In this document: positions 3,193-23,252 of the stretch, piece by piece
How the letters are laid out: each line of letters begins with the position of its first letter
Numbering within the stretch: the stretch's first letter is position 1
Assembly (NCBI GenBank): GCA_963662545.2
Contig: CAXXLL010000002.1
Coordinates: 672,001-736,000 of the forward strand
Direction: 5' to 3'
Length of the DNA: 64,000 nt
DNA from: Gammaproteobacteria bacterium
GTDB lineage: Bacteria; Pseudomonadota; Gammaproteobacteria; Ga0077536
Position numbers and translations under genes: made by a program
The notes under the pieces: generated by a model
What the model was told of the DNA's origin: nothing
The model's input: the letters and a program-made list of their open reading frames with translations, nothing else
Databases searched by the model: none

Positions 3193-3403
3193 TCAGATCA
3201 GGACATAACTTGTAAGAACTCAGACTTGCTCTGACAGTTCCGCCACGCAAATTAATGTCCGCTATCGAAAACATTCCGCTCATACTTCGGGATGGCGATT
3301 TCGGCAGCTCTCGGCCATGGACGGACAATGTTTGTGCCCGGTGGTATACCAAATTGCAGGCTCTAGGCTATCCTTATCACGAGGCTATTCCTATAAGGAA
3401 CGT

Positions 3404-3727
3404 ATGCACAATTTGGTACAGTGTCTGTTGTTCATCGGTTTACTCAGCATCGGCACGGGCAAGGCCGTGCAGGCCGACGACCTGCGCGGTTTCGTTCTCG
3501 CCAGCTCCTGCGTAAGCTGTCACGGTGATGCTTCACCGAACGGTGCGGGTATCCCCGCCATCGTCGGAAGGGACGCCGCGTTTATCGCCGATGCACTGAA
3601 AAATTTTCGTTCAGGCGCGCGCGTATCGACCATCATGCAAAGGCTCGCGCGTGGTTACGACGACGCAGAAGTTGAACTTATTGCCGCATGGCTGGCCAAA
3701 ACTCAGTCCACAATTGTGAGACCCTGA
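3404..3727 (+). CDS. fccA: Monoheme cytochrome c, flavocytochrome c cytochrome subunit
   Basis: Signal peptide, CVSCH heme motif, STIMQRLARGY; directly upstream of fccB. Confidence 0.8.
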   Translation: MHNLVQCLLFIGLLSIGTGKAVQADDLRGFVLASSCVSCHGDASPNGAGIPAIVGRDAAFIADALKNFRSGARVSTIMQRLARGYDDAEVELIAAWLAKTQSTIVRP

Positions 3728-4999: not shown

Positions 5000-5034
5000 C
5001 CGACGCTCGACTGCGCCCTTCCTTCGCTGCCGCT

Positions 5035-5300
5035 GATGGCCGCAATGGGTCCAGGCTGTCCGAAAACTAATTTCGATTTTGGAAAGTGGGGTATGCGTTA
5101 TCCAATTTGATCAATTTGCGCAGTGTGGTCCCTAATTTATCTGCTATGGGGACAACAAGTGGGGAAACTTTTCGTCGCGTAACGATTTTTCGGAGTTTTC
5201 GGACAGCCTGGGTCGTCAGCGGCCTCATCGCCGCGTTGCACCACTACTAAACGTTACGTCTGCAATCCTCTCAATAGCGGTCGTGCGGCAGTGTTCAGCG
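5035..5300 (+). repeat. Three-box array repeat R3 (MITE in box 1; box 3 replaced by IS91 fragment)
   Basis: GATGGCCGCAATGGGTC[MITE]GGTCGTCAGCGGCC...TTACGTCTGCAATCCTCTCAATAGCGGTC. Confidence 0.9.
5052..5210. mobile_element. 159-bp MITE with IS1182-type TIRs
   Basis: TIR CAGGCTGTCCGAAAACT / AGTTTTCGGACAGCCTG, GGTC duplication; near-identical to 23270-23428. Confidence 0.92.
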
Positions 5301-5304
5301 GCGA

Positions 5305-5771
5305 CTGAAGACCTAACGCCTCTTGAACGCCGAGCAGCGATGAATTGGGCGCAGCGCCTGAAGCGGGTATTCAACATCGACGTCGAGACCTGCAATAGCT
5401 GTGGCGGGCAGGTCAAGATCATCGCGTGCATCGAGGATCCTGTGGTAATCGAGAAGATTCTCACCCATATCGAGCGCAAAGAAACTTCAACAGGCGCCTC
5501 GCGTTTGCCACCGTCTCGGGGGCCGCCGCAGGCCAGTTTGTTCGCCTAATACACGGACAACCGTGCGAGCAACACTGGCAGCTGCGATACCGACGAAGCG
5601 GCAGGGTCGCTGTCGAGCCGAGGGTCGAAGAGCCCAAAAATTAGCACCTAAGTGTGAGATTCTCCGGGCTCGGCCAGCCGACACCGCCTGCAAGCGCGCG
5701 TTGACGGCTGTGCGAGCACCTGCGGACACTCGATGAAGTTGCGGAAAAGGGCGTTTGTTCGTCTTATACGC
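5305..5771 (+). pseudogene. IS91/ISCR transposase 3' fragment with oriIS-like end
   Basis: MNWAQRLKRVFNIDVETC..CGGQVKIIACIEDP..RGPP; ends GAAAAGGGCGTTTGTTCGTCTTATAC. Confidence 0.85.
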
Positions 5772-5782
5772 TAATGTCCGCG

Positions 5783-7195
5783 CTATGATCTCACTGTCGG
5801 CTTGATGTTCTGGTTGAAGCGAAACATATTAGTGGGATCGTATTTATTCTTCAGCGCGACCAGGCGCTTATATTTCTCCGGTCCATAGGCAGCCATCACC
5901 CGATCGTCGCCTTCGTCGTCCTGCGGCCCCAGGTAATTGACATAAACCGAGTCCTCGTTGAACGGCGCCATGGCATCAAAGAAATCCCGTGTCCAGGCGA
6001 CGATCTGTTCATTGTTTGACGGGTCTGAGGTCATGCCCATGATCAATGAACTGTAACGGGCATCGCGGTGGTTGAAGGCGGTGTCATCCTTGCCGACACG
6101 TCGAACGCCGTTACCGACCTGCTCGATCATAAAGACCGATTCCGGCGTGGGGATCCTCGACACGAAATCGAGGATCACCTCGATAGTGTCGGCATTGAGT
6201 TTTTTCAGAAAATTGGACTTCCAATAATTCTGAAGTTTTTCTGGAAAAACTTCATCCGATGCTTGTTGATAGTCTACGTAGGTCGTTGGAACAATATCGT
6301 CGCTGATGGGCGAGCCGAACTCTCTCAGTGGTCGCAAGTACTTCTTACCCTCGTGTATGCCGCCGAAATAACAGACTTCAACCCCGAGCGCTAGTGGGCC
6401 ATCAGGTAATGTCGCGAACTGCACTAAGGAAACCAGATCATCGGGGGACGACTCGGTAAATTCGTCGTAAAACGTGAGCACGTCGCGGGCGGCGTCCAGC
6501 GGATGCCATATCACACCTCCTAGTACCTCACCTACCGGATGAACTTGATACTCAAACGACGTCACGACACCGAAATTTCCGCCGCCGCCGCGCAGTCCCC
6601 AAAACAGTTCTTCGTTTTGATCGGCGCTCACCGTCATCAGTCGCCCGTCGGCGGTGACGACATCAGCGGATAACAGGTTGTCACAAGCGAGTCCGTGTCG
6701 CCCGCCGAGCCAACCCCAGCCACCGCCCAAGGTCAATCCCGCTACGCCGGTACGTGATACAGCCCCGCCCGTACTGGCCAGGCCGAACGTCTGCGTCTCG
6801 CGATCGTAATCCTTCCAGGTTGCGCCACCCTCGGCTCTTGCGATGCGCGTCGCTACATCAACGTGAATACTTTTCATCAACGATAGATCGATCATCAAGC
6901 CGCCATCACACACGGCATTGCCCGAAACGTTGTGACCGCCGCCACGAATGGACACGCTAAGCACATTCGACCGCGCGAAGTTGACTGCTGCAATCACGTC
7001 CGAGACACCGGCGCATCGGACGATCAAATCCGGTCGGTGGTCAATCATTTCGTTCCATATCGTGCGGGCTTCGTCATACCCCGCATCGTGAGCTTGAAAG
7101 ACCGAACCGCGCAGGCCTATTTTGAATTCATCGATAATAGATTGATCGAGGCCCATACTATCCGAGCTATCACTGGCGGTATGTGTAACAGACAT
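5783..7195 (-). CDS. FAD-linked oxidase (BBE-like)
   Basis: RGGGHN covalent-FAD motif, LFWGLRGGGGNFGVVT, YVNY and KYDPTNMF C-terminus. Confidence 0.92.
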   Translation of the reverse strand: MSVTHTASDSSDSMGLDQSIIDEFKIGLRGSVFQAHDAGYDEARTIWNEMIDHRPDLIVRCAGVSDVIAAVNFARSNVLSVSIRGGGHNVSGNAVCDGGLMIDLSLMKSIHVDVATRIARAEGGATWKDYDRETQTFGLASTGGAVSRTGVAGLTLGGGWGWLGGRHGLACDNLLSADVVTADGRLMTVSADQNEELFWGLRGGGGNFGVVTSFEYQVHPVGEVLGGVIWHPLDAARDVLTFYDEFTESSPDDLVSLVQFATLPDGPLALGVEVCYFGGIHEGKKYLRPLREFGSPISDDIVPTTYVDYQQASDEVFPEKLQNYWKSNFLKKLNADTIEVILDFVSRIPTPESVFMIEQVGNGVRRVGKDDTAFNHRDARYSSLIMGMTSDPSNNEQIVAWTRDFFDAMAPFNEDSVYVNYLGPQDDEGDDRVMAAYGPEKYKRLVALKNKYDPTNMFRFNQNIKPTVRS

Positions 7196-7591
7196 CTTGG
7201 TTCTCCCCTTCGCAATGACGACACTGCTTTGGAACCAATACTACGATGATTGAATCAAAAGTGCCCTTTCTACGCCGATTTTCGATCCGATTAAAAGATC
7301 AAAGGTTCGTTATCTTCCAAACGCAGTCATTGCCTGCTCAAACTATAGTTTGTTCGCGGTTGCGAGATTTAATTTCACTTGTTCTCTCATGATCGGACGA
7401 GAAAGCTTAATCGACGAAATCATGGAATTTCGCGACCATCATTGGCGCTGCAGGTCGAAGTGATTGTAAATTCGGCGTGCGCGCTTTACTTATAAGCTGT
7501 CGGCATTCATGCTGCAGAATAGTAAAATGAATCGTTCAGCGATGAATGCGAATGCGGCACTACAATAATCTTACAGTCAGAGGAAATAGCG

Positions 7592-8005
7592 ATGACTGAT
7601 AAATTTGGCGGCGCCTGCATGTGCGGCGCAGTGCGCTACAAGTGCAAATCCGAACCGGCTGCAACGGTCGTTTGTCATTGTCGGGATTGCCAGAAGCACA
7701 CGGGTAGCGCCTTTGCGACCGCGATGTTCTTTCTCAAAACCGACGTTGATATAACTGGCGAGCTAAAATCGTTTGATAAAAAAACGGATGCCGGCAACGT
7801 CATGACGAGAACGTTTTGCGGCATATGTGGTTCACATATTACGGAGTTTACGACTGGATTCCCCGAGCACGTCGTGGTGCATGCCGGGACGCTGGATGAT
7901 CCGACCCGGGTGAATCCCGATTCGCAGTGCTGGACGCCAAGAACCTTGCACTGGATCAACGACGTCGGCGGCTTGCACGGTTTCGAACAAGACCCGGAAT
8001 TTTAG
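7592..8005 (+). CDS. GFA family protein
   Basis: GACMCGAVRY, CHCRDCQK, FCGICGS. Confidence 0.9.
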   Translation: MTDKFGGACMCGAVRYKCKSEPAATVVCHCRDCQKHTGSAFATAMFFLKTDVDITGELKSFDKKTDAGNVMTRTFCGICGSHITEFTTGFPEHVVVHAGTLDDPTRVNPDSQCWTPRTLHWINDVGGLHGFEQDPEF

Positions 8006-8085
8006 TCGCCCGATAGACGGAATTGATCAGCCATGTCGCGTGATACCTCGGCGATCGATACCGTCCAATTGCCTGGAAACCCGTT

Positions 8086-8847
8086 ATGAAAGAGCATGAA
8101 GAAGCCTATGCGATGCCATTGGCCGCACCGACCTTCACGCCGCCGCCGTTCTACGCAACACCCTACAGCCGCATTATCCTGATGGTCTACAAGGCGGACC
8201 CGGATGCGGTCGCCTGGGAGGTGCCGGAACCGCTCGAGATGGCAGAGGACGGCGTCATGCTGGCCTGGATCGGCGATATGGGCCAGCCGACTCACACTAT
8301 TGACGTTTATCACGAAGCGCTTACCGCGATTAAGGTGAAGTATCTACGATGGTCGGGCTGGTACATCAATTACATTTGGGTGGACCACGACATGGCGCTC
8401 ACTTTCGAGCGCGAAATATACGGCTGGCCGGCCAACCTGTGTGAATCGACGTCGCTGCAATTTCACGGCAGTCAAATTCTCGCGGACTGTGTACGTTATG
8501 GTGAGCAGTTGATGCGCATAAGTATGAACATCACCAGCCCACCGCCGCAGGGCCGCGAGACGCCGCTCGAGGATGAATTCGGGCGATTGGTTGGCGGGGA
8601 TTTTCTACAGATCCGAAAATTTCCGGCACCGGAGAAAGACGGCATTCCGATCAAGCAACTCCTGCTCATTCCATCGACCGATTTCAAGGTTCACGAAATC
8701 TGGTCGGGGCCTGCGGTGCTCGAACTCGGCAGCTCAGGACTTTACCCACACCTGCATAAACTGAATCCGATCGAAATCCTTGGAGCCTGGTACACGAAAT
8801 CCTCATGGATCGTGCCGTATCCTGAAATTCTTTGGGAGAACAAATAG
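8086..8847 (+). CDS. Acetoacetate decarboxylase family protein
   Basis: AMPLAAPTF..PP, VPEPLE, YIWVDHDMAL..REIYGWP. Confidence 0.8.
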   Translation: MKEHEEAYAMPLAAPTFTPPPFYATPYSRIILMVYKADPDAVAWEVPEPLEMAEDGVMLAWIGDMGQPTHTIDVYHEALTAIKVKYLRWSGWYINYIWVDHDMALTFEREIYGWPANLCESTSLQFHGSQILADCVRYGEQLMRISMNITSPPPQGRETPLEDEFGRLVGGDFLQIRKFPAPEKDGIPIKQLLLIPSTDFKVHEIWSGPAVLELGSSGLYPHLHKLNPIEILGAWYTKSSWIVPYPEILWENK

Positions 8848-9088
8848 GAGCGGGAGGCTCCAGGTCCTACCTGCCTTTGGTGATGAGCGCTGTTCTGTTT
8901 TGCGCCGGCGTGGCTATTGAGCCCTTCGAGACATGAGATGCTACGTAACGCGAATGATTTTAACGCCTTTTATAACTCCCTCTTCCTGTGTGACCGTGGC
9001 TCGGGCATTGCGACATAGGTAAAGACATAGAAACTCCAAGATGCGAAGGCATTGTTGGCGGAGTGGGAGTAAAGAAGCCGCATTCTCC

Positions 9089-10920
9089 GAGGTCTGCAAA
9101 GGGTCCAGGCTGTCCATAAACTCACTTTGCGGAGCACTTGACGGCTCATCCGGGCTGTTTGGTAGCGGCGTCATCACGATGCGCTGATTCTGCGCGTCCA
9201 ACAGCGTTTGAGAAACTCGACGCCAAAGTGGCGAAGGACATTCGCCGCCGCGGTCTATCCAACACCCGGAGGATGTTTCGGGAAAAAGGCGGGTTCCTAT
9301 GACTGTATCGCTTCTATGAGTGGCGCAACCCCGAGTATCGCCATCGCCCGTTTCATGTTGTACGCCAGCACGTGCAAACTCATCTCCGTACCCACGTTCT
9401 TCAGCGTTTTCATTTGGAAGTGTGTCGACCCCATCCAGGATTTCAACGTGCCGAAGGGATGTTCGACGGTCTGTCGTCGAACGCGCATGCGCGCGGGCTC
9501 TTTGTCCAACCTTGCTTCAACCGCTTCGAGCACGGCTTCGTGCTCCCAGCGGCTGACGCGTCGTTCTTTCCCCGTCGTGCACTTGCCTTTGAGCGCACAT
9601 GAACCACACGTCGATGCCCAGTAACGGTAGATTGTTAATCCGTCTTGGTGTGTTTCCGTGCGGCGCGTCAGTCGCTCTCCCGCCGGACATTCGTATTCGT
9701 CATCATCGGGCTTATAAATGAAATCCCGTTTGCCGAAGAGGCCCTTCGCCAGATTGCCCGAGGTCTGGGGTTTCGGCAGATAAGTCGTGACCCCCGCTTC
9801 ATCACACGCCAGGCTCTCCTCGCTCCTGTAGTAACCCCGGTCCGCGACAACCTCCAGGTGCTCAACACCGAGTGCTTCCTTCGCTTGCTTTGCCATGGCG
9901 GCGAGCGCCGCTCGGTCATGACCCACGTTCGTCACCTCGTGCGTCACGATCATATGATGTTTAGCGTCAACCGCCGCCTGTACGTTGTAGCCCACCATCC
10001 CCGTACCGCGCCCGCTGGTCGCCATCGAGCGGGCGTCTGGATCAGTCAGTGAGATCTGTTGGCCCGGTGCCTCAAGCATCCGGGCTTCCAACTTTTTTAG
10101 GCGCGCCATCTCCTCTTTCAGTCGGCTGATTTTATCCGCCAGTCGCTCCGTTTTGTCCTTCGCAACCGCTGCTTCCTGACGGTCAGCACTCGCCATCTGA
10201 CCCAGATACCGCTCAATGCTCTCGTCAATCTGCGCCAACCGACGCTTCAGCTTCGCCTTGGTGAAGTTCCGCTCCCGGTTGTTCACCGCCTTGAACTTGC
10301 TGCCATCAATCGCTACAAATGCCTCCGAGAATAATTCCAGCTTCCGGCACAGCATCACAAACTCCCGGCACACCAGACGAATGGCGACACCGTTGTCCTT
10401 CCTGAAATCCGCGATGGTTCTAAAGTCAGGCGCTAAGCGACCCGTCAGCCACATCAACTCCACATTGCGCTGCGCTTCACGCGCCAGCCGTCGCGATGAC
10501 TGAACTCGATTCAGGTAGCCGTATACGTAAAGTTTTAAAAGGGTTCTCGGATCGAAGCCCGGCCGACCCGCGGCCTTGGCCTCCGACTGGAAACCTAGAC
10601 CGGAAATATCCAGCTCGTCGATGAATACATCAATCACGCGCACCGCACTGTCTTCGCCGATGTAATCATCCAGTCGCTCTGGAAACAGCGTCGCTTGGTA
10701 GCGATCTTCGCCTTCAATGAATCCACTCATCAGACGATTCCTTGCGCGAAAGGTCGATTATAGATTCATGGGAGTTTTCGGACAGCCTGGGTCGTAAGCC
10801 GCCCGCTCGCGGCAGTGCAGCACTGCTAGAGGTTAGGTCTGGGATACCCTCGTAAGCGGCCATTCCCTTCTCATAAAAAGCATCGCAGCGCTTGACTTCG
10901 GCTCGCGGCTAAGAGCGGTC
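9089..10920 (+). repeat. Three-box array repeat R4 (split by IS1182-A in box 1)
   Basis: GAGGTCTGCAAAGGGTC[IS]GGTCGTAAGCCGCC..GCAGTGCAGCACTGC..AAGCGGCC..GGCTCGCGGCTAAGAGCGGTC. Confidence 0.9.
9106..10789 (-). mobile_element. IS1182-family element A (transposase 9297-10730)
   Basis: 477-aa DDE transposase (IDGSK, ADRGY, VEHPFG); TIR CAGGCTGTCC.AAACT; GGTC duplication. Confidence 0.95.
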
Positions 10921-11011
10921 CCGAATATAAACGGTGTTCGTCGAGAATTGCTATGCTTACAGAACTGCCCTCGGGTGAACATCCAATAAGACGATGTCGG
11001 GAGATCGGACC

Positions 11012-12877
11012 ATGAGAAATCTGCACCTGTTACCCCTGTTTGGATCCCTGTTCGCGTCGCTCGCTGCGTACGCTGAACCCGCAGCCGAAAAGTCGAAGGG
11101 ACTGGACGGCGCCGCACTGTACGCCGAACACTGTATCGAATGCCACGGGCGCGCCGCAATTTCCCCATCGTTGACGGCATTATCGAACATGACCGCCGAG
11201 GAAATTCACAAGGAACTGTGGTTCGGCGTCATGGCACAGTTTGTCAATGGCATGGACGATGCGAAGCGATGGACGATAGCCAAGTGGATCGCCGACCATA
11301 AACCCGAAAAGGGCACGCGCGGTGCCGGCGTGACCATGTGCAAAGACAAGACGCCGCTGGTACCCGATGCGGAGCATGACTGGCCTGGACTGTCGAACGA
11401 CAACCGCTACAACCGGCATGTGACTAATGCGCAGCTCACCGCTGCGGGGTTAGCGAACCTCAAGGTCAAGTGGGCCGTAGCCTTCCCGCAGGTCCACGCG
11501 TACCAGGGTGGTGGGCACCCGGTCGCCGTCGTCGGTGACCGATTGTTCGTAGGTAATCTCAATCAATGGGTCTACTCGCTCGATGCGGACACCGGGTGTG
11601 CCCACTGGGCGTTTCGTGCGGAATGGCGGATCCGATCGAACATCGCGGTGTCCGACGGTATCGCCGTGTTTGGCGATCTGGGGGCCAACGTCTACGCTGT
11701 AGATGCGGAAACGGGCCAATTGCTGTGGCGCGACCGGGCGGATTGGACGCCGACCTCACGCATTACGGGCAACGTGACGGCGCACGACGGCATGGTTTAC
11801 GTGCCCGTGTCCTCCTTCCAAGAAGTGCTCAATATTGGCAAACATAGGGAATACCCGTGCTGTACGTTTCGCGGCAGCATCGTCGCCTATGACCTGCGTA
11901 CCGGTGAGCGCAAGTGGAAGTCCTACACCATCGACAAGGAATTCGGGTATCTGGGCACGACGAAAGCCGGCACGAATCGCTACGGTCCCTCGGGGGTCGT
12001 GGTGTTCTCGGCCGTCACGGTCGACGACAAGCGCGGCCTGCTTTACGTGCCAACCGGCAACCAGATGACTGAGCCGGTCGTGCGCGAATCCGACGCCATG
12101 TTGGCGTTGGACATGAAAACCGGCGCCAAGCGCTGGGTGACTTCACTGGCACCCGAGCAGATGGGCGGCCAGGACATCTACCACCTGGGCTGCGAAAAGT
12201 GGGTGGATCCCGAACAGAAAACCTGTTCGCCCTTAAACCCGACGGGACATGGTGACCGGGATATCGTGTCGCCCGCGGTGCTGGTGGAACGATCGGACGG
12301 TAAGGAGATCATCGTGACCGGATCCAAGGACGGCATGCTTTACGGCCTGGATCCGGATGACAGCGGCAAAGTCCTGTGGCAGATCCGCCTCGGCGCCGGC
12401 GGAGAGCTCGGCGGCATCCAATGGGGATTCTCGAGCGACGGCATAAATGCCTACGTACCCGTCATCGATATGGATGTGGACATGAAGGCGAACGGGTCCT
12501 TCACGGCGGTCGATCTCCTGACCGGTAAATCCATCTGGCGTATACAGGATATGACGCCTGATTGTGAAGGTAAGACGTCACCCCCGTGCAGCAACGCCTT
12601 CAGCTTGCCCAGTACCGTGGCGGGCGACGTCGTTTTCACGGGCACCGGCGACGGCGTACTGCGCGCTTACGATACCGCGACCGGCAAGCCGGTGTGGACG
12701 TTCGATACCGTGCGCGAATATGAAACGGTTAACGGCCGCAAAGGGTTCGGTGGGGGGCTCGGCTCGTTCGGGGGGCCCGTCATCGTGAAAAACCGGTTAT
12801 ACGTTTCATCCGGCATGGATCAGTTCAATATTGGGCTGCCCGGAAACGTACTGATCGCGTTCGAGATCCCCGAATAA
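11012..12877 (+). CDS. PQQ-dependent dehydrogenase with N-terminal cytochrome c (polyvinyl alcohol dehydrogenase-like)
   Basis: Signal peptide, CIECH, PQQ beta-propeller repeats, YPCCTFRGS, GGIQWG. Confidence 0.88.
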   Translation: MRNLHLLPLFGSLFASLAAYAEPAAEKSKGLDGAALYAEHCIECHGRAAISPSLTALSNMTAEEIHKELWFGVMAQFVNGMDDAKRWTIAKWIADHKPEKGTRGAGVTMCKDKTPLVPDAEHDWPGLSNDNRYNRHVTNAQLTAAGLANLKVKWAVAFPQVHAYQGGGHPVAVVGDRLFVGNLNQWVYSLDADTGCAHWAFRAEWRIRSNIAVSDGIAVFGDLGANVYAVDAETGQLLWRDRADWTPTSRITGNVTAHDGMVYVPVSSFQEVLNIGKHREYPCCTFRGSIVAYDLRTGERKWKSYTIDKEFGYLGTTKAGTNRYGPSGVVVFSAVTVDDKRGLLYVPTGNQMTEPVVRESDAMLALDMKTGAKRWVTSLAPEQMGGQDIYHLGCEKWVDPEQKTCSPLNPTGHGDRDIVSPAVLVERSDGKEIIVTGSKDGMLYGLDPDDSGKVLWQIRLGAGGELGGIQWGFSSDGINAYVPVIDMDVDMKANGSFTAVDLLTGKSIWRIQDMTPDCEGKTSPPCSNAFSLPSTVAGDVVFTGTGDGVLRAYDTATGKPVWTFDTVREYETVNGRKGFGGGLGSFGGPVIVKNRLYVSSGMDQFNIGLPGNVLIAFEIPE

Positions 12878-12884
12878 GGGTACC

Positions 12885-13016
12885 GTGACGGCGATTAGAT
12901 CGGAGGACGTTATTCAAAGCGTGGCGGACGCGTTGCAATACATCTCGTATTACCATCCGCCCGACTACATCGCCAACCTCGCGCGCGCCTACGAGCTCGA
13001 AGAGTCGCAGGCCGGC
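12885..13016 (+). pseudogene. Class I fumarate hydratase, 5' fragment cut at repeat R5
   Basis: Own translation: MTAIRSEDVIQSVADALQYISYYHPPDYIANLARAYELEESQAG. Confidence 0.85.
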
Positions 13017-13150
13017 GTGGCCGCTTAGGGTCGTCGGCGGCCTCCTCGCGGCACTGCAGCACTGTTTTAGATTGCGTCTGCTATTCCCTCCATAGCGGTC
13101 GTCCAATAGCGTTCAGCGGAACGTTTACAGAGCACTTCAGCTTACAGCCG
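13017..13150 (+). repeat. Three-box array repeat R5
   Basis: GGCCGCTTAGGGTCGTCGGCGGCC..GCACTGCAGCACTG..GTCTGCTATTCCCTCCATAGCGGTC. Confidence 0.92.
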
Positions 13151-13362
13151 AGGCTTTTCTTGCAACGCTCGACATTCCGATCTCGGCACCGAGCCTAGGC
13201 GGACCCGAAACGTTGGTGACGTGCCCTGCCATCACTTCGCACGCGGGACTGTCGATAGCAGCGCGCGAACGCCTAGGTGTCAGCAACGCTTTGATCCGCT
13301 GCTCGACGGGTTTGGAGGACGCTGATGAGCTGATTGCTGATTTCGCCCAAGCCCTCGGTTGA
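13147..13362 (+). pseudogene. Cys/Met PLP lyase (MetB/MetC type), 3' fragment starting in box 3 of R5
   Basis: Own translation: AEAFLATLDIPISAPSLGGPETLVTCPAITSH...LIRCSTGLEDADELIADFAQALG*. Confidence 0.85.
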
Positions 13363-13443
13363 TACCCGTGTATCATCCGGGTTCAAGGAACTTTCGGCCG
13401 CACGCCCATGTCCGGATGTATTGCGGCGATAGTGGAAAACTCC

Positions 13444-14943
13444 ATGAATCATTTTGATGTCGTCATCGTCGGCGCAGGCCTGTCGGGCATCGGCGCGGCT
13501 CGTCAATTGCAGGACAAATGTCCCGGCAAGACGTTCGCGATTCTGGAAGGGCGTGAAACGATCGGCGGCACCTGGGATCTGTTTCGTTACCCCGGTGTCC
13601 GTTCGGACAGTGATATGTATACGATGGGATACGACTCTAAGCCCTGGCTCAACCCCAAAGCGATTGCTGACGGACCGTCAATTTTGGACTACGTGAAGGA
13701 GGCCGCCACGGAGCGCGCCATCGTCGAGCACATCCACTTTGGTCATAAGGCCCGCGCGGCCAACTGGTCGAGCGAGCAATCCCGCTGGACCATCGAAGCC
13801 AAGCGCACGAATGGCGGCTTGGCTCAGTTCACCTGTAATTTTCTGTTTATGTGCAGTGGCTACTACAGCTACGATGAAGGTTACACCCCCGAGTTCGACG
13901 GCATAGACGATTTTAAGGGCCAGATCATCCATCCTCAGAAATGGCCGGACGACCTCGACTATGCCGGCAAGCGCGTGGTGATCATCGGCAGCGGCGCGAC
14001 CGCGATGACGCTGGTCCCGGCCATGGCCGAGACAGCCGGTCAGGTCACGATGCTGCAGCGTTCGCCGACTTACGTGGTGTCGCTCCCGGCCGAAGACGCA
14101 ATCGCCGAAACGCTCAAGAAGTATCTGCCGGAGAAGCTCGCGTATCGCATCATCCGCCGGAAGAACGTGCAGTTTCAGCGCTACATCTACCGCCAAACGC
14201 GAGTGAATCCCGAGAAGTTCAAGCAGAAACTCTTGAGTCTGGTGCGTAAGCACCTCGGGTCCGACTACGATATCAACAAGCACTTCACGCCTGATTACAA
14301 CCCCTGGGATCAGCGTCTTTGTCTCGTGCCGGATGCCGACTTGTTCAAGGCGATAAATTCCGGCAAAGCGGCGGTGGCGACCGATCAAATCGAACGCTTT
14401 ACGCCTACCGGAATTCAGCTCAAGTCCGGAGGCGAACTCGAAGCCGACATCATCGTTACCGCGACGGGTCTCAACCTCGTCGTACTGGGCGACGCGACCT
14501 TCAGTGTCGACGGCAAACCCATTGATTTCCCGCAGACCTACTCCTACAAAGGTTTGATGTTTTCGGATGTACCCAACCTCGTGTACACCCTAGGCTATAT
14601 CAATGCGTCCTGGACTTTACGCTCGGAATTGGTGGCGGAATATGTATGCCGGCTGGTGAATCGCATGACTGAGTTGAATGCCAGCCAGTGCACCCCGCGC
14701 TTGCGCGAAGAAGATGAAGGCATGGAGCGGCGATTGATGGTCGAGGATTTCACCCCGGGCTACATGCAGCGGACCATGCATCTATTTCCGAGGCAAGGTG
14801 ATCGCGACCCCTGGCGCTTCACGCAAAATTATGCGGCCGACAAGAAGAAAATCCGTCACGCGCCGCTGGAAGATGGGGTCTTGAACTTCAGTCGAAATCG
14901 TCCGCCTGAGTTTTCAGAGATCAAAGGGGCCGTTAACGAATGA
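13444..14943 (+). CDS. Flavin-containing monooxygenase (EthA/BVMO-like)
   Basis: GAGLSG, GGTWDLFRYPGVRSDSD, FKGQIIHPQKWP, GSGATA. Confidence 0.92.
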   Translation: MNHFDVVIVGAGLSGIGAARQLQDKCPGKTFAILEGRETIGGTWDLFRYPGVRSDSDMYTMGYDSKPWLNPKAIADGPSILDYVKEAATERAIVEHIHFGHKARAANWSSEQSRWTIEAKRTNGGLAQFTCNFLFMCSGYYSYDEGYTPEFDGIDDFKGQIIHPQKWPDDLDYAGKRVVIIGSGATAMTLVPAMAETAGQVTMLQRSPTYVVSLPAEDAIAETLKKYLPEKLAYRIIRRKNVQFQRYIYRQTRVNPEKFKQKLLSLVRKHLGSDYDINKHFTPDYNPWDQRLCLVPDADLFKAINSGKAAVATDQIERFTPTGIQLKSGGELEADIIVTATGLNLVVLGDATFSVDGKPIDFPQTYSYKGLMFSDVPNLVYTLGYINASWTLRSELVAEYVCRLVNRMTELNASQCTPRLREEDEGMERRLMVEDFTPGYMQRTMHLFPRQGDRDPWRFTQNYAADKKKIRHAPLEDGVLNFSRNRPPEFSEIKGAVNE

Positions 14944-15039
14944 TAGGTTTAATAATTCTCCGTTGTCACCTAACCCTCTAATTCACCTTGGCTTAGCCGA
15001 ATCTTCGCTTTCTCGCCATTTCTGCCGCACCGTTCCACC

Positions 15040-15120
15040 TACCCTTGAAGACCGCTCCGCATTTTTCGATAAACACAGTCATGCCTTTTTTCTGGTCCTC
15101 GGTAGAAAACGCCAGGGCCA
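15040..15120 (-). pseudogene. Enoyl-CoA hydratase C-terminal scrap
   Basis: Own translation: ALAFSTEDQKKGMTVFIEKCGAVFKGR. Confidence 0.6.
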
Positions 15121-15159
15121 CCGCTCCAGTCGGAGAAGGAAGCAAGGTAATCTACCGTC

Positions 15160-16992
15160 GATGTCCGCTGTGGGTCCAGAGTGTGTGAAAACTCTGCATC
15201 AGATAAGATCACTCTTTCGGTCCTGGGGAGTCGTTGATGAGCGGGTTCATTGAAGGCGCGGACCGCCGCCAAACAACGCTGTTTCCCGAGTGTCTGGACG
15301 ATTATGTCGCTGAGGAGAGTGCGGTGCGGGTCATCGATGTGTTCGTCGATGAGTTGGATCTGTCAGGTCTGAGTTTCAGAACCGATGCGCATGAGACGGG
15401 TCGACCGGGGTATCACCCGGCGACGATGCTGAAGCTCTATATCTACGGTTACCTGAACCGGGTTCAATCGAGCCGTCGCCTGGAACGGGAGGCGCAGCGG
15501 AACGTGGAACTGATGTGGCTGACGGGTCGTCTGGCGCCTGATTTCAAGACCATTGCCGATTTCCGCAAAGATAACGGTGACGCCATTCGTCTGGTATGCC
15601 GGGAGTTCGTGATGCTGTGCCGTAAGCTGCAGCTGTTTTCGGAAGCCTTCGTGGCGATAGATGGCAGCAAGTTCAAAGCGGTAAACAACCGTGACCGGAA
15701 CTTCACGAAGGCGAAGCTGAAACGTCGGTTGCAGCAGATTGACGAGAGCGTTGAGCGGTACCTGGCGGAAATTGCAAGTGCCGACCGCCAGGAGCGTGCG
15801 GTGTCAGGTGACAAGTCGCAGCGTTTGAAGGACAAGATCGAGGTACTGAAGGAAGAGATAGGCCGCCTAAAAAAGCTCGAGGTACGGCTCGAGGAGACGC
15901 CGGACCATCAGGTCTCACTGACGGACCCGGACGCGCGCTCGATGGCGACGAGCGGCCGTGGCAGCGGCATGGTGGGGTACAACGTGCAGACGGCGGTCGA
16001 CACGAAGAGTCATCTGATTGTGGCACATGAAGTGACGAACGTAGGTCATGACCGGGCGCAACTGTCGAACATGTCGGAGAAAGCCAAAGAGGCGCTGGAT
16101 AAGAAGGAGTTGACCGTCGTTGCGGATCGCGGGTACTTCAGTGGCGAAGAGATCTTGGCGTGCGCTAAAGCCGGCATCACGACCTATCTGCCGAAACCGC
16201 AGACCTCGGGTAACCAGGCGAAGGGCTTGTTTGGCAAGCGCGACTTCATTTACCAACCCGAAGAGGATGCGTATGAATGCCCGGCCGGTGAGCGACTGAT
16301 TTACCGGTTCACCCGAGTGGAGAAAGGCAAGCAGATCCGGCGCTACTGGAGTTCGGCGTGTCCCCGCTGCCCGATCAAATCTAAATGCACAACGGGTCGA
16401 TACCGGCGCGTCAGCCGTTGGGAACATGAAGCGGTTGTTGAAGCGGTGCAGGCGCGATTGGATCGTGAACCTGACCCTATGCGTGTCCGCCGAGAGACGG
16501 TCGAGCATCCATTTGGCACGATCAAATCCTGGATGGGTTCGACCCACTTCCAGATGCGCACGCTGAAACACGTTGGTACGGAAATGAGTCTGCACGTGCT
16601 CGCTTACAACATGAAACGCGTGATGAATCTACTGGGTGTCGCTACGCTCATCGAAGCGATGACGGCATGAGACCCTCTGTGGCCTCGAAAACTCCCTGAT
16701 CCACGGCTTCACTGCCGGCTTCTGGGGCCGTTCTAAGGAATGTTCCATTAACTAACCGATCGCATTGGACCGCGAGCGCGGCCGTCGTAACCGCGCCGCG
16801 TTGCGTCTGACGAGGAGTTCTCGACGTGATTCCTCTTCATTCCGAGTTTTCACACACTCTGGGTCGGTAGCTGCCTGATCACCGCGGCGCAACGCTGCTC
16901 TAGTTTACGTCTACAATGCGCTCGGAAGCGGTCATCGAGTTGCTTTAAGCGTTAAGTCGAGAGGGTACGACGGCTCTCGGCCAAGTGTGGGC
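15160..16992 (+). repeat. Three-box array repeat R6 (split by IS1182-B)
   Basis: GATGTCCGCTGTGGGTC[IS]GGTCGGTAGCTGCC..GTCTACAATGCGCTCGGAAGCGGTC..GACGGCTCTCGGCC. Confidence 0.9.
15177..16861 (+). mobile_element. IS1182-family element B, copy 1 (transposase 15237-16670)
   Basis: TIR CAGAGTGTGTGAAAACT, 1685 bp, GGTC duplication. Confidence 0.95.
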
Positions 16993-17133
16993 CCGAACAG
17001 CACGCACGCCTCGATCATTCATCGGCAAGTTGCTATACCGCAGCGCTGACTTGAAAGCGGCTATTTAATGGGGATAGCAAAAGCTGGCGGATATTGGTAA
17101 ACGTATCCGATAGCGCGACGGGGGAAAGAGGCC

Positions 17134-17763
17134 ATGTACATTCCCAAGGCACATCAAATTTCGGATAGAGCGATACTTGATGAGTTCATCACGATGAACG
17201 GTTTTGCGACGCTCATCAGCACCGTGGACGGCTCCCCCTTTGCGACCCATCTGCCGATGATCCTCGATCGGACTGAGTCGGCGCAGGGAGTTCTCCTGGG
17301 GCATGTCGCGCGCGCTAATCCTCACTGGCGCGCGTTCGACGGCCAGAGGGAGGCGCTCGCGATTTTCCACGGCCCTCATACCTACATTTCCCCTAGTTGG
17401 TGTGTGACCCCCCTCGCTCTACCCACCTGGAACTATGCGGTGGTGCACGTATACGGCGCTCCTCGTGTCGTCGATGAGGAAGAATGGCGCTCCAACCTGG
17501 TGGACAGACTGATTGCCATCCACGAAGCGGGCATGCCTGAACCGTGGCCAGGGGAGTTTCCCGCCGACTTCAAAGCCAATCTCTTGCAAGCGATCGTGGG
17601 GTTTGTCATAGAAATCGAGCGAGTGGAGGGCAAGTTTAAACTGGCTCAGAACCGCCCGCTTGAGGACCAGCTGGGGATTGTGCGTCACCTTGAAGCAAGC
17701 CGTGACCCTGTAGCCCAGGCATTGGGAGCACTCACGAAGAAACAGCTCAGCGCCACGGATTGA
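17134..17763 (+). CDS. FMN-binding negative transcriptional regulator (PaiB family)
   Basis: MYIPK, GHVARANPHW, YISPSW, PTWNY, GKFKLAQNR. Confidence 0.9.
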   Translation: MYIPKAHQISDRAILDEFITMNGFATLISTVDGSPFATHLPMILDRTESAQGVLLGHVARANPHWRAFDGQREALAIFHGPHTYISPSWCVTPLALPTWNYAVVHVYGAPRVVDEEEWRSNLVDRLIAIHEAGMPEPWPGEFPADFKANLLQAIVGFVIEIERVEGKFKLAQNRPLEDQLGIVRHLEASRDPVAQALGALTKKQLSATD

Positions 17764-17865
17764 TTGATCGAGCACGAAGAGCCTGAAATGAACCCAGAAG
17801 TTATTGCGAGGGTGGAGACTAGCCAAAAAAAAACGCCTTAGTACGAGGTTTTTATTTTTGCAACC

Positions 17866-19138
17866 AGGTCCGCTATGTGGTTTGGCCCCGGTATTTCGGA
17901 CCACCTAATTCGGCACGATAATGTGCTGGGAGGTGTGTCATGGGGAGAAGACAACGCTATAGCGCGGAGTTCAAAAGACAAGCACTTAGGCGAGCTGACG
18001 AGCCCGGGGTGACGGGTGCTCTGGTGTGCGAGGAGCTTGGGATCAGTACGCGACAGCTTCGGCGGTGGCAGGATTTGGTAAGTGAGCACGGGGAGAAGGC
18101 TGCGTTCCCAGGCCACGGCAAGAGCCGCGACGAGGAGATGACGCGACTCAAGCGCGAACTGAGCAAGGTCACAGAGGAGCGTGATTTTTTAAAAGAAGCG
18201 GCGAGGTACTTTGCCAGGGAGTCGAAGTGAGATACGGCTGTATCCACCGGCGGCGGCGCCAGCACTCGGTCAGGATGATGTGCGGGTTGTTGCGTGTCTC
18301 GCGTAGCGGTTACTACGACTGGTGCGGTCGTGGCGAGAGTGCGAGACAGCGCCGGGACCGGCGTCTGTTACCCCTGATCCGAGGCCTGCACCTGGAGAGT
18401 GGCGGTGTCTACGGCGCACGCAAGGTGCAACGCGAACTGGCCGAGCTCGGTGAGCCTTGCGGACGGCACAAAGTGGCCCGCTTGATACACGATGCCGGAC
18501 TCAAAGGTTGTCCGAAGCGCCGATTTCGCCGGCTTGCTGAGCGCCCGCCGAGCTACCCGGTTGCAGCGAACTTGCTCAACCAGGACTTCAAGGCCAGCCG
18601 GGTCAACGCGCGCTGGGCGTCGGATATTACCTACCTCTCGACACGCCAGGGATGGCTGTACCTGGCGGTAGTGATGGACCTCTATTCGCGACGCATTGTG
18701 GGCTGGTCGATGGACCGGCGGACCGGCCGACACCGGGTGGTGGACGCGATGAAGATGGCGCTGGGGCAACGTCAGCCGAGCGCCCCGTTGCTCCATCATT
18801 CCGACCGTGGACCGCAATACACCAGCGATGACTTCCGAGCGCTACTGGCGCGTTACGGGATCGAATGCAGTATGAGTGGTCGTGGTAGTTGTTACGACAA
18901 TGCACCGGTCGAAAGCTTTTTCGCGCTACTCAAGCGCGAGCGCATTCGCCGACGCACTTACGCTTCTCGAGAGGACGCCAAGGCTGATGTGTTCGACTAC
19001 ATCGAGCGTTTCTACAACCGATGTCGGCGTCATGGCTACCTGGACTATTCCAGTCCGGTAGACTTTGAAAGGCAGGCAGTGAAGACTTAATCAACTGGTC
19101 CGAAATTCTGGGGCCGAACCAGTCGGCCATAAGCGGCC
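17866..19138 (+). repeat. Array repeat R7, internally deleted around an IS3
   Basis: Box-1 left arm AGGTCCGCTATG, then IS3, then box-3 GTCGGCCATAAGCGGCC. Confidence 0.6.
17878..19121 (+). mobile_element. IS3-family element (orfA 17940-18230, orfB 18227-19090)
   Basis: TG..CA 26-bp imperfect TIRs; WASDITY, HSDRG, YDNAPVESFF; no target duplication. Confidence 0.95.
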
Positions 19139-19328
19139 ATCCGAGTCGCCTGGCTAACTCAATTTTGATGGCTGGAGCGAGCCATATTCCTGACGACCGC
19201 CCCAAAAAAATACTGCGCGCAGGTATTCGAGCCATGCCCGCTCCGACACCTTATATATATGTGCCCTTAATCGCTGTACTGGTGGGCTGTTCTACGCCCT
19301 ACCAGAAGAAGGGTTTTTCCGGCGGATA

Positions 19329-19534
19329 GCATATTGGCGCACAGTCCAAGGCCGCCCCACGTACTTGGTCGCGCGTGGCCCGCGCACAAAGGGCTCGAAT
19401 CCCGGCATCGAATCGACGTGTTCCAACTCGGCCAGGTCGGCCGCCGTATAAACGGGTTTAACGACGATTCCCTCCGCCGTCAGCCAGTCAAGCGCGTCTG
19501 GCGAGGCCGCCTTTGACTCCTTTAGCGCCCGCGC
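19329..19534 (-). pseudogene. Methylmalonyl-CoA mutase N-terminal fragment
   Basis: Own translation: LDWLTAEGIVVKPVYTAADL..MPGFEPFVRGPRATKYVGRPWTVRQY. Confidence 0.85.
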
Positions 19535-19835
19535 GCTTCAATCAGATAGGGCTTTTTCAGAACCTGTTGTCACTCGAGAACCTCCGGAATATACGGCGAT
19601 CCGGGCGCCTATACCCCGCCTGCGGTGCGGGCGTCTGGGAGCCGCGAATTATAGCCCGCGATCCGTCTAGACGCACGTAAGGTTCTGCATTACAGGACTT
19701 TTCCGGTGCCTACAGATCGTTTACGGAAGGCCCGCGGGACCTAACTCGTTATACTGGACGGGCCCGCGTCGGGCACGTCACCGCCCGGTGAGCCGCACGT
19801 AATAGCAATCAAAGACGAAATCCCCTAAACACATC

Positions 19836-21050
19836 ATGGATTTCTCACTTTCAGCCGATCAAATCGAGCTCCAGAGTCACTGCCGCGAACTCGCGCGCAC
19901 GTTTGCTGAGACGTCCGACCGGCATGATCGCGAAGCATCCGCGCCGGAAGAGAATTACCGTGCGCTACGTGAAGCCGGCCTGTTCGGGATGCTAACGCCC
20001 AAGAACTTGGGCGGGATGGGCGCCGGCCTGCTCGGACACACGATCGCGATGGAAGAACTCGCCCAGGGCTGCGCCGCGACAGCGATGAGCTTCAACATGC
20101 ATAACGTGGCCGCTTATACGCTAACGGTAACCGACGCATTCGGCGACGCCGTACGCGAACGCGCTGCACAACTGTTTGTCGTCGAACGCAAGTTAATGGC
20201 GAATCTCATTTCGGAGGCCGGCACGACCAATCTTTTGTACTCGACGCGCGCAAGTTCGACCCAGGCGCGACGGGTAGATGGCGGTTATCTGTTAAACGGC
20301 CGCAAGGCTTTCGCTTCTATGATCTCCTCGGCCGACATGGCGTTGATTTGCGTGCATCCGGAACATATCGAGAACCTCGAATCGGTGATCATGGTAATCG
20401 TCGATACCGACGCGCCCGGTCTCACGATCGAACCGGTGTGGGATACGCTGGGTATGCGAGCAACCCGCAGTGACAACGTTTTGCTCGAAGATTGCTTCGT
20501 ACCGGCGGAATTTGCCTTCGATCATGTCGTTGTTCCCAGCATCGGCGAATTCCTGGCGACTCATGAATCGATGATCAACCTGCCCTATACCGCCGTTTAC
20601 ATGGGCCTTGGGCTCGCAACGCTGGCCGCGATCAAAGCCGTTGTAAAGGGACGGCGACCCAAGGGTTACACCCAACCGCTGTCTTATCACCCCGATATCC
20701 GGCGGCGCATAGCCATCATCAACGCAGAACTCGAGAGCGCGCGTTGGCTGTTGCGCTACGCGGCCTGGCTCGCCGACAACGAAGGCCAAACGCCGGCCGC
20801 GCAGACGGCGTTGTTCCGCGCGAAATACGTCGTTGGCGAGGCCGTAGCCGCGGCAACGCGATCGGCACTCGAAATGGGCGGCGCGCATGGGTTGTTCAAA
20901 GGCTCGGCGATAGAACGTTTGTTTCGCGACGGCGCCACCGCCACAATGATGCAACCCAGCACCGACGTTTGTCTGGGCCAGATCAGCCTCGATGAATTAG
21001 ACCTCGAGCAAACGCAGGTCCAATCTCCGTTGGCCCGTTCCGACGACTGA
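19836..21050 (+). CDS. Acyl-CoA dehydrogenase family protein
   Basis: GYLLNGRKAFAS, WDTLGMRATRS, IERLFRD. Confidence 0.9.
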   Translation: MDFSLSADQIELQSHCRELARTFAETSDRHDREASAPEENYRALREAGLFGMLTPKNLGGMGAGLLGHTIAMEELAQGCAATAMSFNMHNVAAYTLTVTDAFGDAVRERAAQLFVVERKLMANLISEAGTTNLLYSTRASSTQARRVDGGYLLNGRKAFASMISSADMALICVHPEHIENLESVIMVIVDTDAPGLTIEPVWDTLGMRATRSDNVLLEDCFVPAEFAFDHVVVPSIGEFLATHESMINLPYTAVYMGLGLATLAAIKAVVKGRRPKGYTQPLSYHPDIRRRIAIINAELESARWLLRYAAWLADNEGQTPAAQTALFRAKYVVGEAVAAATRSALEMGGAHGLFKGSAIERLFRDGATATMMQPSTDVCLGQISLDELDLEQTQVQSPLARSDD

Positions 21051-21310
21051 CGCAGTATGCCGCGTCACCACTCGCGGTTCGGGTGATGATCGCAACCCTA
21101 TAATCGAGTTCTTACCCGGTTATCTCGCCGTACTAATTGGATCCCGCCTTTTCCAACTGCACGGATTCCTGAAGCGTTGTCGTGAATTCGAACGAGGGCG
21201 GGGTCTTCGATGCAGGCGATGACTGTAGAGCACCGCACCTGCGTATGGCTTTTGGATCTATTTTCACAGTCGGGTTGTGCTGGAAGTAAGCGTTCTAAAC
21301 CTGGAACTCC

Positions 21311-21455
21311 GAGGACCACTTTGGGTCGTCAGCGGCCGAATCGCGGCAGCGGATCACCGCCCTAGATTACGTCTGCAGTGCGCTCCATAGCAGTCGTCGA
21401 GTAACGTTCACCGACGCGTTAACCGATGACGACGGCAGTCGGCCAATAACCGATA
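21311..21455 (+). repeat. Three-box array repeat R8
   Basis: GACCACTTTGGGTCGTCAGCGGCC..CTAGATTACGTCTGCAGTGCGCTCCATAGCAGTC..GACGGCAGTCGGCC. Confidence 0.92.
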
Positions 21456-21769
21456 TATCCCGAATCTGCTACCAGTCAAGCGAATAATTAAATTCGCCCA
21501 ATATCCTGGCACTGAGTGACTAAAATGGTGGCGCTGAGAAAAAATATTACGTGCTAATGCCCGGCTTTAAAATCGGCGGTTGGGGCCCATAATTGTAGTT
21601 GGGTACAAAAAGAAGAGAGGAAATTTAGCAAGTGCCAGTGCCGCCATCAGGATTGAAGTTGGCTTTACTAATTGACCATATAATGGAACCGGATAAAAAC
21701 TGGTTTATCGCGCCAGAAGGTCATTTCTGGTATTGGGTGCCAGCTGACTCTGCACTCTTTCCCCTTTTC

Positions 21770-23236: not shown

Positions 23237-23252
23237 AGCAACCACGTTTGCC

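Follow-up and report, generated by a model that had tools for sequence, protein, structure and literature searches.

A 64,000-nucleotide (nt) stretch of a Gammaproteobacteria bacterium (lineage Ga0077536; contig CAXXLL010000002.1, positions 672,001 to 736,000; hereafter the window) carries an array of repeated, site-like modules, one of which, R5, stands between the stumps of two different genes. To the left of R5 lies the beginning of a class I fumarate hydratase (fumarase), to its right the end of a pyridoxal phosphate (PLP)-dependent lyase of Cys/Met metabolism, and the two junctions differ in kind: the fumarase is cut at the outer edge of the module's left arm, the lyase at the centre of a palindrome (P3) within the module. 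Such shearing of neighbouring genes is exceptional in the array, most segments of which are bounded by whole genes. We tentatively propose that a different event made each side of R5, a history to which we give somewhat less than an even chance.

The fumarase stump follows a complete pyrroloquinoline quinone (PQQ)-dependent dehydrogenase, whose homologues are named polyvinyl-alcohol dehydrogenase (cytochrome) in some sources. A gap of 7 nt separates the end of this gene from the GTG start of an open reading frame (ORF) of 47 codons (12885-13028), in which 43 native fumarase codons are followed by four foreign ones and which is closed by a TAG inside the module (13026-13028). The ORF resembles class I fumarate hydratases of 508 aa with PF05681 and PF05683 (best match E=1.4e-17, 98% identity across 91% of the ORF; E<=0.001 for 5835 of the 5854 candidates that were scored). 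Aligned to the window by tblastn, the homologue P0002 matches the stump with its residues 1-43 at 42 of 43 positions, the sole mismatch being the GTG start. NCBIfam alone recognises the stump weakly (NF004885, E=0.028, positions 1-44 of 279), and a sequence search of the Protein Data Bank gave chance-level matches only (E=1.2). A class I fumarate hydratase needs about 500 aa comprising Fumerase and Fumerase_C, of which residues 1-43 are present here, and no second fumarase piece was found in the 64 kb, either by tblastn with P0002 or by Pfam over 242 frames (50+97+95). Judged by its sequence, the piece is a remnant and not a gene.

Identity to close relatives is high throughout this flank: 96% for the dehydrogenase (homologue P0243, 621 aa, residues 1-621 aligned to 11012-12874), 98% for the fumarase stump and 94.8% for a shared 1.46-kb stretch. 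The DNA to the left of R5 is thus this lineage's own and not that of a distant donor, and the nearly unchanged protein of the stump means that the event was recent, or that the stump is a recent copy. A preliminary description of this DNA had proposed to look for donor genomes by homology of the segments; the dehydrogenase and the fumarase stump found their matches in close relatives. A tblastn search of plasmids with the dehydrogenase returned five records, none above about 34% identity, a distance at which they say nothing about gene order.

At the left junction, fumarase homology stops at 13013, 3-7 nt before an intact left arm (about 13018-13027, including CCGCTT at 13021-13026). The origin of the bases between, 13014-13017, is uncertain, and base 13014 could still be the first of fumarase codon 44. 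The offset from CCGCTT to GGGTCG, the sequence at 13028 that marks the centre of the first palindrome (P1) and opens the conserved core, is the same as in R9, R16 and R18, and P1 of R5 is intact and free of any insertion sequence (IS). The bases past 13013 encode the next fumarase residues in no frame, which excludes that the P1 centre crossed over with a similar site in the fumarase gene.

At the right junction, the core of R5 ends at 13149 with the GCC of the P3 centre (the GGCC equivalent), and the lyase begins at this centre, at the same nucleotide at which miniature inverted-repeat transposable elements (MITEs) are inserted in R1 and R2. The nine bases GCCGAGGCT fit both the module and the lyase: they are identical to the boundaries between module and MITE in R1 and R2, and in frame they encode Ala-Glu-Ala, as do the two closest lyase homologues at the same position. 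These nine ambiguous bases make a short-homology event as good a fit as a dedicated crossover. The right arm of R5 is not recognisable, with 6 of the 14 positions after GGC matching the consensus when read by eye.

The lyase stump covers the C-terminal positions 310-380 of the 381 of the Pfam profile Cys_Met_Meta_PP (E=4.5e-18), whose full length of about 380 aa includes the PLP-binding part. Its nearest full-length homologue (P0122, 381 aa) aligns with residues 311-381 on 13147-13359 at 87% identity. The frame has a stop upstream (13093-13095), no usable start, and its own stop at 13360-13362, and no other lyase piece was found in the 64 kb by tblastn with P0122 or by Pfam over the 242 frames. 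This piece, too, is a remnant and not a gene. One residue that is invariant across all five aligned homologues is altered in it, and the stump looks older or decayed. On a 5.9-Mb contig of a relative, a 248-aa form of the lyase (P0123), 84% identical to the stump, begins near residue 134 of the full-length protein; this short form indicates that the lyase may be cut or decaying at another point in that relative.

The preliminary description had announced both stumps, correctly assigned them to two different genes, and gave coordinates and codon counts (about 44 and about 70) that are right to one or two codons. It had further taken the junctions, at box 1 on the left and within box 3 on the right, as the points of joining. 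This stands for the right side, which lies at the recurrent centre of P3 (box 3), and not for the left, where the junction lies 7-14 nt to the left of GGGTCG, outside the intact left arm and at the outer edge of a complete module. Its proposal that each sheared gene is the native neighbour of the adjoining whole gene (dehydrogenase with fumarase, lyase with monooxygenase) is likely, given spacings of 7 nt between the dehydrogenase and the fumarase start and of 45 nt between the lyase stop (13362) and the start of the monooxygenase (13408). A plasmid region with an 81% nt match inside the monooxygenase has hydrolases and dehydrogenases beside it and no lyase within 5 kb.

R5 belongs to an array whose 21 copies all lie on one strand. 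A profile of 18 copies (nhmmer) gave 22 matches on the + strand (E 6.7e-40 to 1.7e-08), which amount to 21 modules since one is split by an IS630-like element, and two chance-level matches only on the - strand (E=3 and 3.4). A repeat search of the window also groups the module copies (families D1-D5), which are 63-85% identical to one another. The array extends past both ends of the window, which begins inside R1. On L002, a contig of a relative's metagenome-assembled genome (MAG) that matches window 62544-64000 at 94.8% identity, a further module stands 52 nt past the window's end point.

An alignment of 24 copies, seven of them from other loci, defines a module of about 150 nt with a strongly conserved core of 122 nt, outside which conservation falls. 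The core runs from GGGTCG, the centre of the imperfect palindrome P1, to GGCC, the centre of the second palindrome, P3; between them the core contains one more short palindrome, the third, as well as a conserved block that has AGCGGTCGTC at its end, a 10-mer that occurs seven times in the window against 0.3 expected. The outer arms, with ..CCGCTT.. on the left and ..AAGAGCGGTC.. on the right, are weaker; they form mutual inverted repeats of about 10-12 nt and are recognisable, read by eye, in about half of the copies. Crossover within the module would predict that its left and right parts vary independently; in Mantel comparisons the left part gave r=0.15 against the middle (p=0.16) and r=-0.11 against the right (p=0.79), and within the left part r was 0.04, the signal being saturated.

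Features of the window that bear on module R5 and its array
Feature	Position	Strand	Basis or remark
Array of 21 modules, spacing 0.7-9.3 kb	11..61792	+ (all)	Profile search
MITEs at the P3 centre	143..304 (R1), 2220-2380 (R2)	+	IS1182-type ends; same nucleotide as the lyase start in R5
ISCR (IS91-type) transposase, C-terminal remnant	5289..5546	+	NF052416; begins inside or at the right end of R3
Module R4, left of the PQQ-dehydrogenase piece	10776..10932	+	Profile; P1 centre carries the right end of IS-B
PQQ-dependent dehydrogenase, complete, with N-terminal cytochrome c domain	10994..12877	+	Pfam PQQ, PQQ_2, Cytochrome_CBB3
Fumarase stump, first 43 codons of a class I fumarate hydratase	12885..13013	+	Protein search, tblastn
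Module R5	13014..13149	+	Profile match 13018-13166, E=5.6e-38
Ambiguous nine bases, GCCGAGGCT	13147..13155	+	Fit both module and lyase
Lyase stump, last 71 codons and stop of a Cys/Met-metabolism PLP lyase (MetB/MetC type)	13147..13362	+	Pfam, tblastn
Flavin monooxygenase, FMO/Baeyer-Villiger type, 511 aa	13408..14943	+	FMO-like and Pyr_redox families
Module R6, split at the P1 centre by IS-A (15176-16862)	15163..17001	+	Left arm 15163-15175, remainder from 16861
Module R13, cut inside P3	36922..37033	+	About 5 nt left of the join point of R5 and lyase; unrelated DNA after

The genes that face the modules are mostly whole. We scored every host gene end facing a module that could be judged by profile coverage (n=26), leaving out the C-end of the monooxygenase, the C-end of the MltD-like gene, the N-end of the cupin, six ends of ORFs without a family, and sides occupied by an IS. 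Complete were 23 of the 26, as measured by domain coverage, which is no proof of intactness: a major facilitator superfamily transporter (both ends), a methyltransferase, the flavocytochrome c sulfide dehydrogenase, the PQQ dehydrogenase, an FMN-binding protein, an acyl-CoA dehydrogenase, a Na/H exchanger (both ends), the N-ends of the MltD-like gene and of MscS, two Band7 genes, a deacetylase, the C-end of the cupin, a SaoL-like lyase (both ends), two luciferase-like monooxygenases (three ends), a CDP-alcohol transferase, DUF1329 and a SnoaL-like protein. The three cut ends are those of the fumarase, the lyase and the C-end of MscS, whose beta domain stops after 37 of 68 positions (30371-30904) and whose stump ends 56-124 nt before a 43-nt repeat-associated sequence preceding R11. 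Bacterial genomes are mostly coding (about 85-90%); random cuts would therefore mostly strike genes, the opposite of what is observed. Related 43-nt sequences (74-86% identical) stand just left of three modules (4999-5041, 25726-25768, 30960-31002), and the first of them begins at 4999, where the sulfide dehydrogenase gene has the final base of its stop codon, so that this gene touches repeat-associated sequence.

These data qualify the preliminary description of the segments as raw chromosome pieces rather than cassettes. The segments, of 0.7-9 kb, do hold one to several genes on both strands and not single ORFs, and include natural pairs (cytochrome c with the flavocytochrome sulfide dehydrogenase; the two Band7 genes); sheared pieces, however, are not the rule, and the assertion that capture is generally not bounded by genes lacks support. 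Further stumps adjoin IS elements and not modules, namely a methylmalonyl-CoA mutase of which the first ~54 profile positions are left, next to an IS3 element (19295-19537, -), and a dioxygenase reduced to its last ~48 profile positions (48876-49058, -). The G+C content at third codon positions (GC3) is 0.58-0.80 for most genes, with three low outliers of 0.45-0.50 (27649-28242, 54311-54979, 60215-60823; two without a family match), which are probably foreign.

The P1 and P3 centres are hot spots for IS insertion and breakage. IS1182-type insertions are found in 9 of the 21 modules, seven at one P1 nucleotide and two at one P3 nucleotide, both points being palindrome centres. IS-A, a 1687-bp member of the IS1182 family, to which we take IS1272 to belong as well, is present in three 100%-identical copies in R6, R10 and R16 (15176-16862, 28320-30006 and, inverted, 41066-42752); the copies occupy the same P1 nucleotide, in both orientations and with GT on both sides, and three identical copies at one nucleotide suggest very recent, site-specific transposition. 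R4 carries IS-B, an IS1182-type element related to IS-A (transposase 9297-10730, -), of which the left end is missing, as is the left arm of R4. MITEs of ~160 nt with IS1182-type ends lie at the P1 point of R3, R8 and R12 (5051-5211, 23269-23429, ~33691-33860), and the MITE-containing copies 5047-5301 and 23265-23519 are 92% identical. The transposases of this type have the domains DUF772, DDE_Tnp_1 and DDE_Tnp_1_6, and the elements share 18-nt inverted ends and a single insertion point in 3 + 1 + 3 modules, which places them in the family. Among plasmids, window 1-25000 matched 11 records, nine of them annotated, with an IS1182 family transposase in eight and an oxidoreductase in one. Inverted-repeat targets are reported for IS1272 in a passage of one study (PMC5678879).

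The centre of P3 is a recurrent breakpoint, marked by the MITEs of R1 and R2, by the lyase junction of R5, by the cut in R13 ~5 nt away, and by the ISCR remnant at R3. That remnant matches positions 444-508 of 509 of NF052416 over 5340-5546 (E=1.4e-19), and a longer frame, 5136-5546, matches positions 427-508 (E=8.3e-23). A second ISCR remnant (52020-53387, -) is nearly full length with broken frames (NF052416 19-198 and 274-372) and is too decayed to place the start of the one at R3. A third is probable at 45982-46167, from its repeat with 51873-51995 alone. The short pieces that repeat part of the second remnant (45982-46167, 51873-51995, 52551-52626) are ~5.7 kb apart in direct order and enclose a block with MatE, YjgF-like, PD40 and the dioxygenase stump. 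Elsewhere, R14 stops at profile position 86 and is followed by ~11 nt resembling the end of IS-A, and R15 is split by the IS630-like element (38906-40051, with DDE_3 and HTH frames) at a TA present on both sides, its pieces lying at 38860-38905 and 40052-40137.

Single-strand folding of 14 copies on both strands with DNA parameters gave z-scores of -1.64 to +2.66 against shuffles, the consensus folds by RNAalifold reached -2.96 and -2.92 kcal/mol, and two candidate hairpins showed no covariation, 329 of 500 shuffles pairing equally well. Rfam at gathering scores had no match in the whole window (a permissive search of 30900-31250 gave one chance match, E=9), and no tRNA or tmRNA was found in it. 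Since the module does not fold, its look is more likely that of a double-stranded protein-binding site than that of an attC-type hairpin, and on sequence grounds the modules look like double-stranded recombination or target sites. A consensus search of 10500-30400 yielded two promoter-like sites against 8.2 expected and 15 terminator-like sites against 20.8, and only one of these falls in a module; a promoter or terminator role was rejected, no consistent consensus being carried. The first 8-9 bases of the core presumably resemble the outer end of Tn21-type inverted repeats, a likeness that gained no support from the plasmid search. In each of two unrelated arrays (window 38160-38212; L001 1881-1933), a module is followed by a hairpin-forming element of 53 nt; the two are 89% identical and may represent a terminator or another small repeat.

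Beyond the window, the module is rare. A degenerate pattern that matches 16 of the 21 window copies was scanned over one genome per species (185,579 species) and found five stretches in the whole collection, two in the ~95%-identical MAG, a third in a MAG of the Pseudomonadota, and the others on contigs of 3.8 kb and 5.7 kb that were binned as Chloroflexota and Poribacteria, respectively. On these five loci the profile detected seven modules, twice as same-strand pairs 0.8-1.5 kb apart, and next to these modules stand genes for the kinds of accessory enzymes that the window also carries. The few pattern matches in the close relative indicate that the module is not a genome-wide repeat of this lineage; instead of many scattered copies in both orientations, 21 of 21 copies lie on one strand, a count that covers the window and not the source genome beyond it. 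The monooxygenase beside the module in L002 is a 26%-identical paralogue and not the same cassette. The module had no match in the plasmid and phage collections, and a description of such an array was not found in the literature by a word search, which cannot find a sequence.

In the history that we tentatively favour, R5 would be one site in a long array of module-type sites that normally lie between whole genes or operons. In a first event, a module or module-bounded DNA would have landed inside the fumarase gene, 136 nt downstream of the dehydrogenase, through machinery acting on the module ends, so that the left junction would be the scar of module placement. Recombination with another module would then have carried one side into the array and left the rest of the fumarase behind; the piece brought in would be 2.1 kb of the lineage's own chromosome, comprising the PQQ dehydrogenase and 43 fumarase codons. 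In a second, later event, R5 may have broken at the P3 centre and been joined to the lyase gene through short shared sequence, with loss of the right arm of the module and of the first 310 lyase codons. The preliminary description had dismissed insertion of the repeat into a gene on the ground that the two sides are different genes. This does not follow, since insertion combined with recombination between modules, or with a later deletion, also yields two different genes, and the insertion alternative stands.

The right junction admits two readings. In one, a deletion through short homology, for which an R5 with a miniature element would be the simplest starting point, would have taken that element, the right arm and all DNA up to lyase codon 310; in the other, the P3 centre would have recombined with a similar site within the lyase gene. 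For the latter speaks that the ISCR remnant has its start within R3 or at the right end of that module, and that R3, R5 and perhaps R16 read GCC and then GAG; against a single precise crossover speak the cut of R13 ~5 nt to the left and the right arm that is weak in ~7 other modules. The shared GCCGAG fits a dedicated P3 crossover, as the preliminary description had it, as well as short-homology joining.

Several findings weigh against the two-event history. Simple insertion should sometimes leave both halves of a gene round a module, and no such case occurs in the window. The weakness of the right arm in ~7 further modules means that the loss of the arm from R5 is judged against a consensus from about half of the copies, and the GCCGAG start at the P3 centre is common to two or three unrelated junctions (R3, R5, perhaps R16). 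No integrase, resolvase or other candidate enzyme was found in the 242 window frames, and no recombinase or transposase acting on modules in 117 frames from the five other loci (2 kb round modules); a phage-integrase-type domain was likewise absent from both sets, and the array continues past both window ends. An empty palindromic target for the module was not found in the window with up to three mismatches, nor were target duplications in the seven copies read by eye, nor a circular form; with none of these seen, we infer the mobility of the module rather than observe it. The broader possibility that the array is the work of an undescribed, non-integron gene-gathering system, in which a module lands in or beside host genes and recombination between modules lifts DNA into the array, appears to us improbable.

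The leading rival needs no cassette system at all: the modules would have arisen by local spread of an intergenic repeat, or of a miniature transposable element, through a native, decaying, IS-ridden region, and the stumps would stem from ordinary deletions between repeats or beside them. We regard this as unlikely. It would account for modules that stand between whole genes, for outer arms that are short mutual inverted repeats as in a miniature element, for the uniform GC3 of most genes (0.58-0.80), for a region with at least five IS families and several other gene remnants, and for a break between the window and L002 that falls at an IS3-end remnant and not at a module. It is hard to reconcile with 21 of 21 copies on one strand over 64 kb, with two pattern matches in the ~95%-identical MAG against 16 in the window, with modules that lack target duplications (seven copies read) and never have the two halves of one gene around them, or with the fumarase junction, since a chance deletion would unlikely end within a few bases of a module edge. 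Rather less probable still is the model of the preliminary description, an array built from raw, arbitrarily sheared pieces joined to the repeats at fixed points, box 1 at its left edge and box 3 in its middle, so that sheared neighbours would be the normal mark of capture. Whole genes at 23 of 26 assessable ends, where random cuts would mostly strike genes, count against it, as does a fumarase junction 7-14 nt to the left of GGGTCG and outside the left arm. The two different stumps that flank a single module, the segments with up to several genes on both strands, natural pairs included, and the conservation that is strongest from the P1 centre to the P3 centre and drops outside are all in its favour. 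Junctions to unrelated truncated genes do recur at the P3 centre (R5, R3), but there is no single right-hand point, R13 being cut ~5 nt off and R14 at profile position 86; and the further stump near R11, MscS (30371-30904), stops 56-124 nt short of the nearest repeat-associated sequence.

That the stumps were made by ISCR (rolling-circle) elements or by module-targeting IS1182-type elements, with the module as a landing place only, also seems to us quite improbable. The two or three ISCR remnants, one starting inside or at the end of a module, fit such an origin, as do the IS1182-type insertions in 9 of 21 modules, the ~11 nt like an IS-A end after R14, and the loss of the R4 left arm together with the end of IS-B. 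The window holds no intact ISCR transposase, however, and neither an IS nor an ISCR end lies at the fumarase junction, with P1 of R5 intact. At the lyase junction the 6-7 nt that follow the break of R5 are the same as those at the outer end of a MITE of the P3 type, but they also encode residues conserved in lyase homologues, so that an IS origin is not required. An assembly artefact, in which two unrelated contigs were joined through a repeat, is hardly credible, although repeats are classic sites of chimeras and one end of a relative's contig (L003), its start, lies 175 nt from a module. No run of identical bases longer than 19 links R5 to any other part of the window, and the copies are 63-85% identical; three 100%-identical 1687-bp IS copies were spanned, which would point to long reads; and a chimera inside a repeat would not delete a right arm or leave a 9-nt overlap with the lyase frame. 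Misassembly, which the preliminary description had named as a possible source of the junctions, is thus an unlikely cause.

Among known systems, integron cassette arrays come closest to the array in the way it works, yet it lacks several of their defining features. As in cassette arrays and clusters of attC sites lacking integrases (CALIN), many site-like repeats of the same orientation (21 of 21 on the + strand) part gene-bearing segments of one array, an IS family homes in on the sites (in integrons, the IS1111-attC group), and the origin of the segments is open. An attC site is an imperfect palindrome whose single strand forms a long hairpin in which the R and L boxes pair, and its ends carry a conserved RYYYAAC ... 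GTTRRRY core pair. The module, in contrast, forms no single-strand hairpin and has no such pair at its ends in the alignment read by eye, the ends being ..CCGCTT.. and ..AAGAGCGGTC..; GTTA-type words occur in some copies only, in the variable middle. In integron arrays each site comes after a single short ORF of the same direction, usually without a promoter; the segments here measure 0.7-9 kb and hold up to several genes on both strands. No IntI, the tyrosine recombinase that in integrons lies with attI at one end of the array, was found in the window frames or within 2 kb of modules in the five other loci.

Rolling-circle capture by ISCR/IS91 elements, in which a Y2-type transposase gene has its origin end beside the captured DNA, takes up arbitrary chromosome pieces with stumps of neighbouring genes, and both arbitrary stumps and ISCR remnants are present here. 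The repeated unit, however, is neither a gene nor an end of an ISCR, only two or three transposase remnants stand against 21 modules, and the fumarase and lyase junctions have no adjoining ISCR, no remnant lying next to 12885-13362. MITEs and REP/ERIC repeats, which are favoured IS targets, resemble the module in being intergenic, in their length of ~150 nt and, where its arms are recognisable, in the short, imperfect inverted repeats at their ends. They differ from it in that the module keeps to one strand and one array, is nearly absent from the ~95%-identical MAG, and has neither target duplications (seven copies by eye) nor an empty palindromic target in the window. Tandem accretion of integrative elements at a single attachment site offers direct repeats of the same orientation between multi-gene cargo, and complex att or res sites share with the module its several short palindromes and repeated 7-10-mers; but the 64 kb contain no tRNA or tmRNA gene and no integrase, and the repeats are 63-85% identical and not near-identical copies of one target.

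To our knowledge, the way in which ordinary chromosomal genes become gene cassettes has long been an open question, integrons included. Where a site-like module adjoins the still undecayed stump of a housekeeping gene of its own lineage, the scar is of a sort that could reveal this making. If the gene-gathering reading were true, the fumarase junction would be a fresh cassette caught at birth and direct evidence of cassette origin. If the stumps were deletion products only, the value would be less, and the module palindromes would still be fragile points and the homing sites of one IS family. The two exact end points allow the origin of array segments to be traced in the genomes of relatives.

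Further observations concern the right part of the window. A gene of the PD40/beta-propeller type (49259-51097, -) contains a 118-nt perfect tandem duplication (50664-50899), and as 118 is not a multiple of three, its reading frame may be affected. IS3-end-like remnants lie at 17868-17923, 57365-57436 and 62374-62446, and at 1-480 of L002. The window and L002 diverge near 62544, ~100 nt to the right of such a remnant, and beyond the divergence L002 carries a short-chain dehydrogenase where the window has the SnoaL-like gene. The gene at the right end of the window encodes a CmcJ/NvfI-family oxidoreductase (62678-64000, -; E=1.7e-39), whose start faces the next module; the assignment to the minus strand agrees with 42 of the 76 differences from L002 617-1936 (-) falling at its third codon positions.

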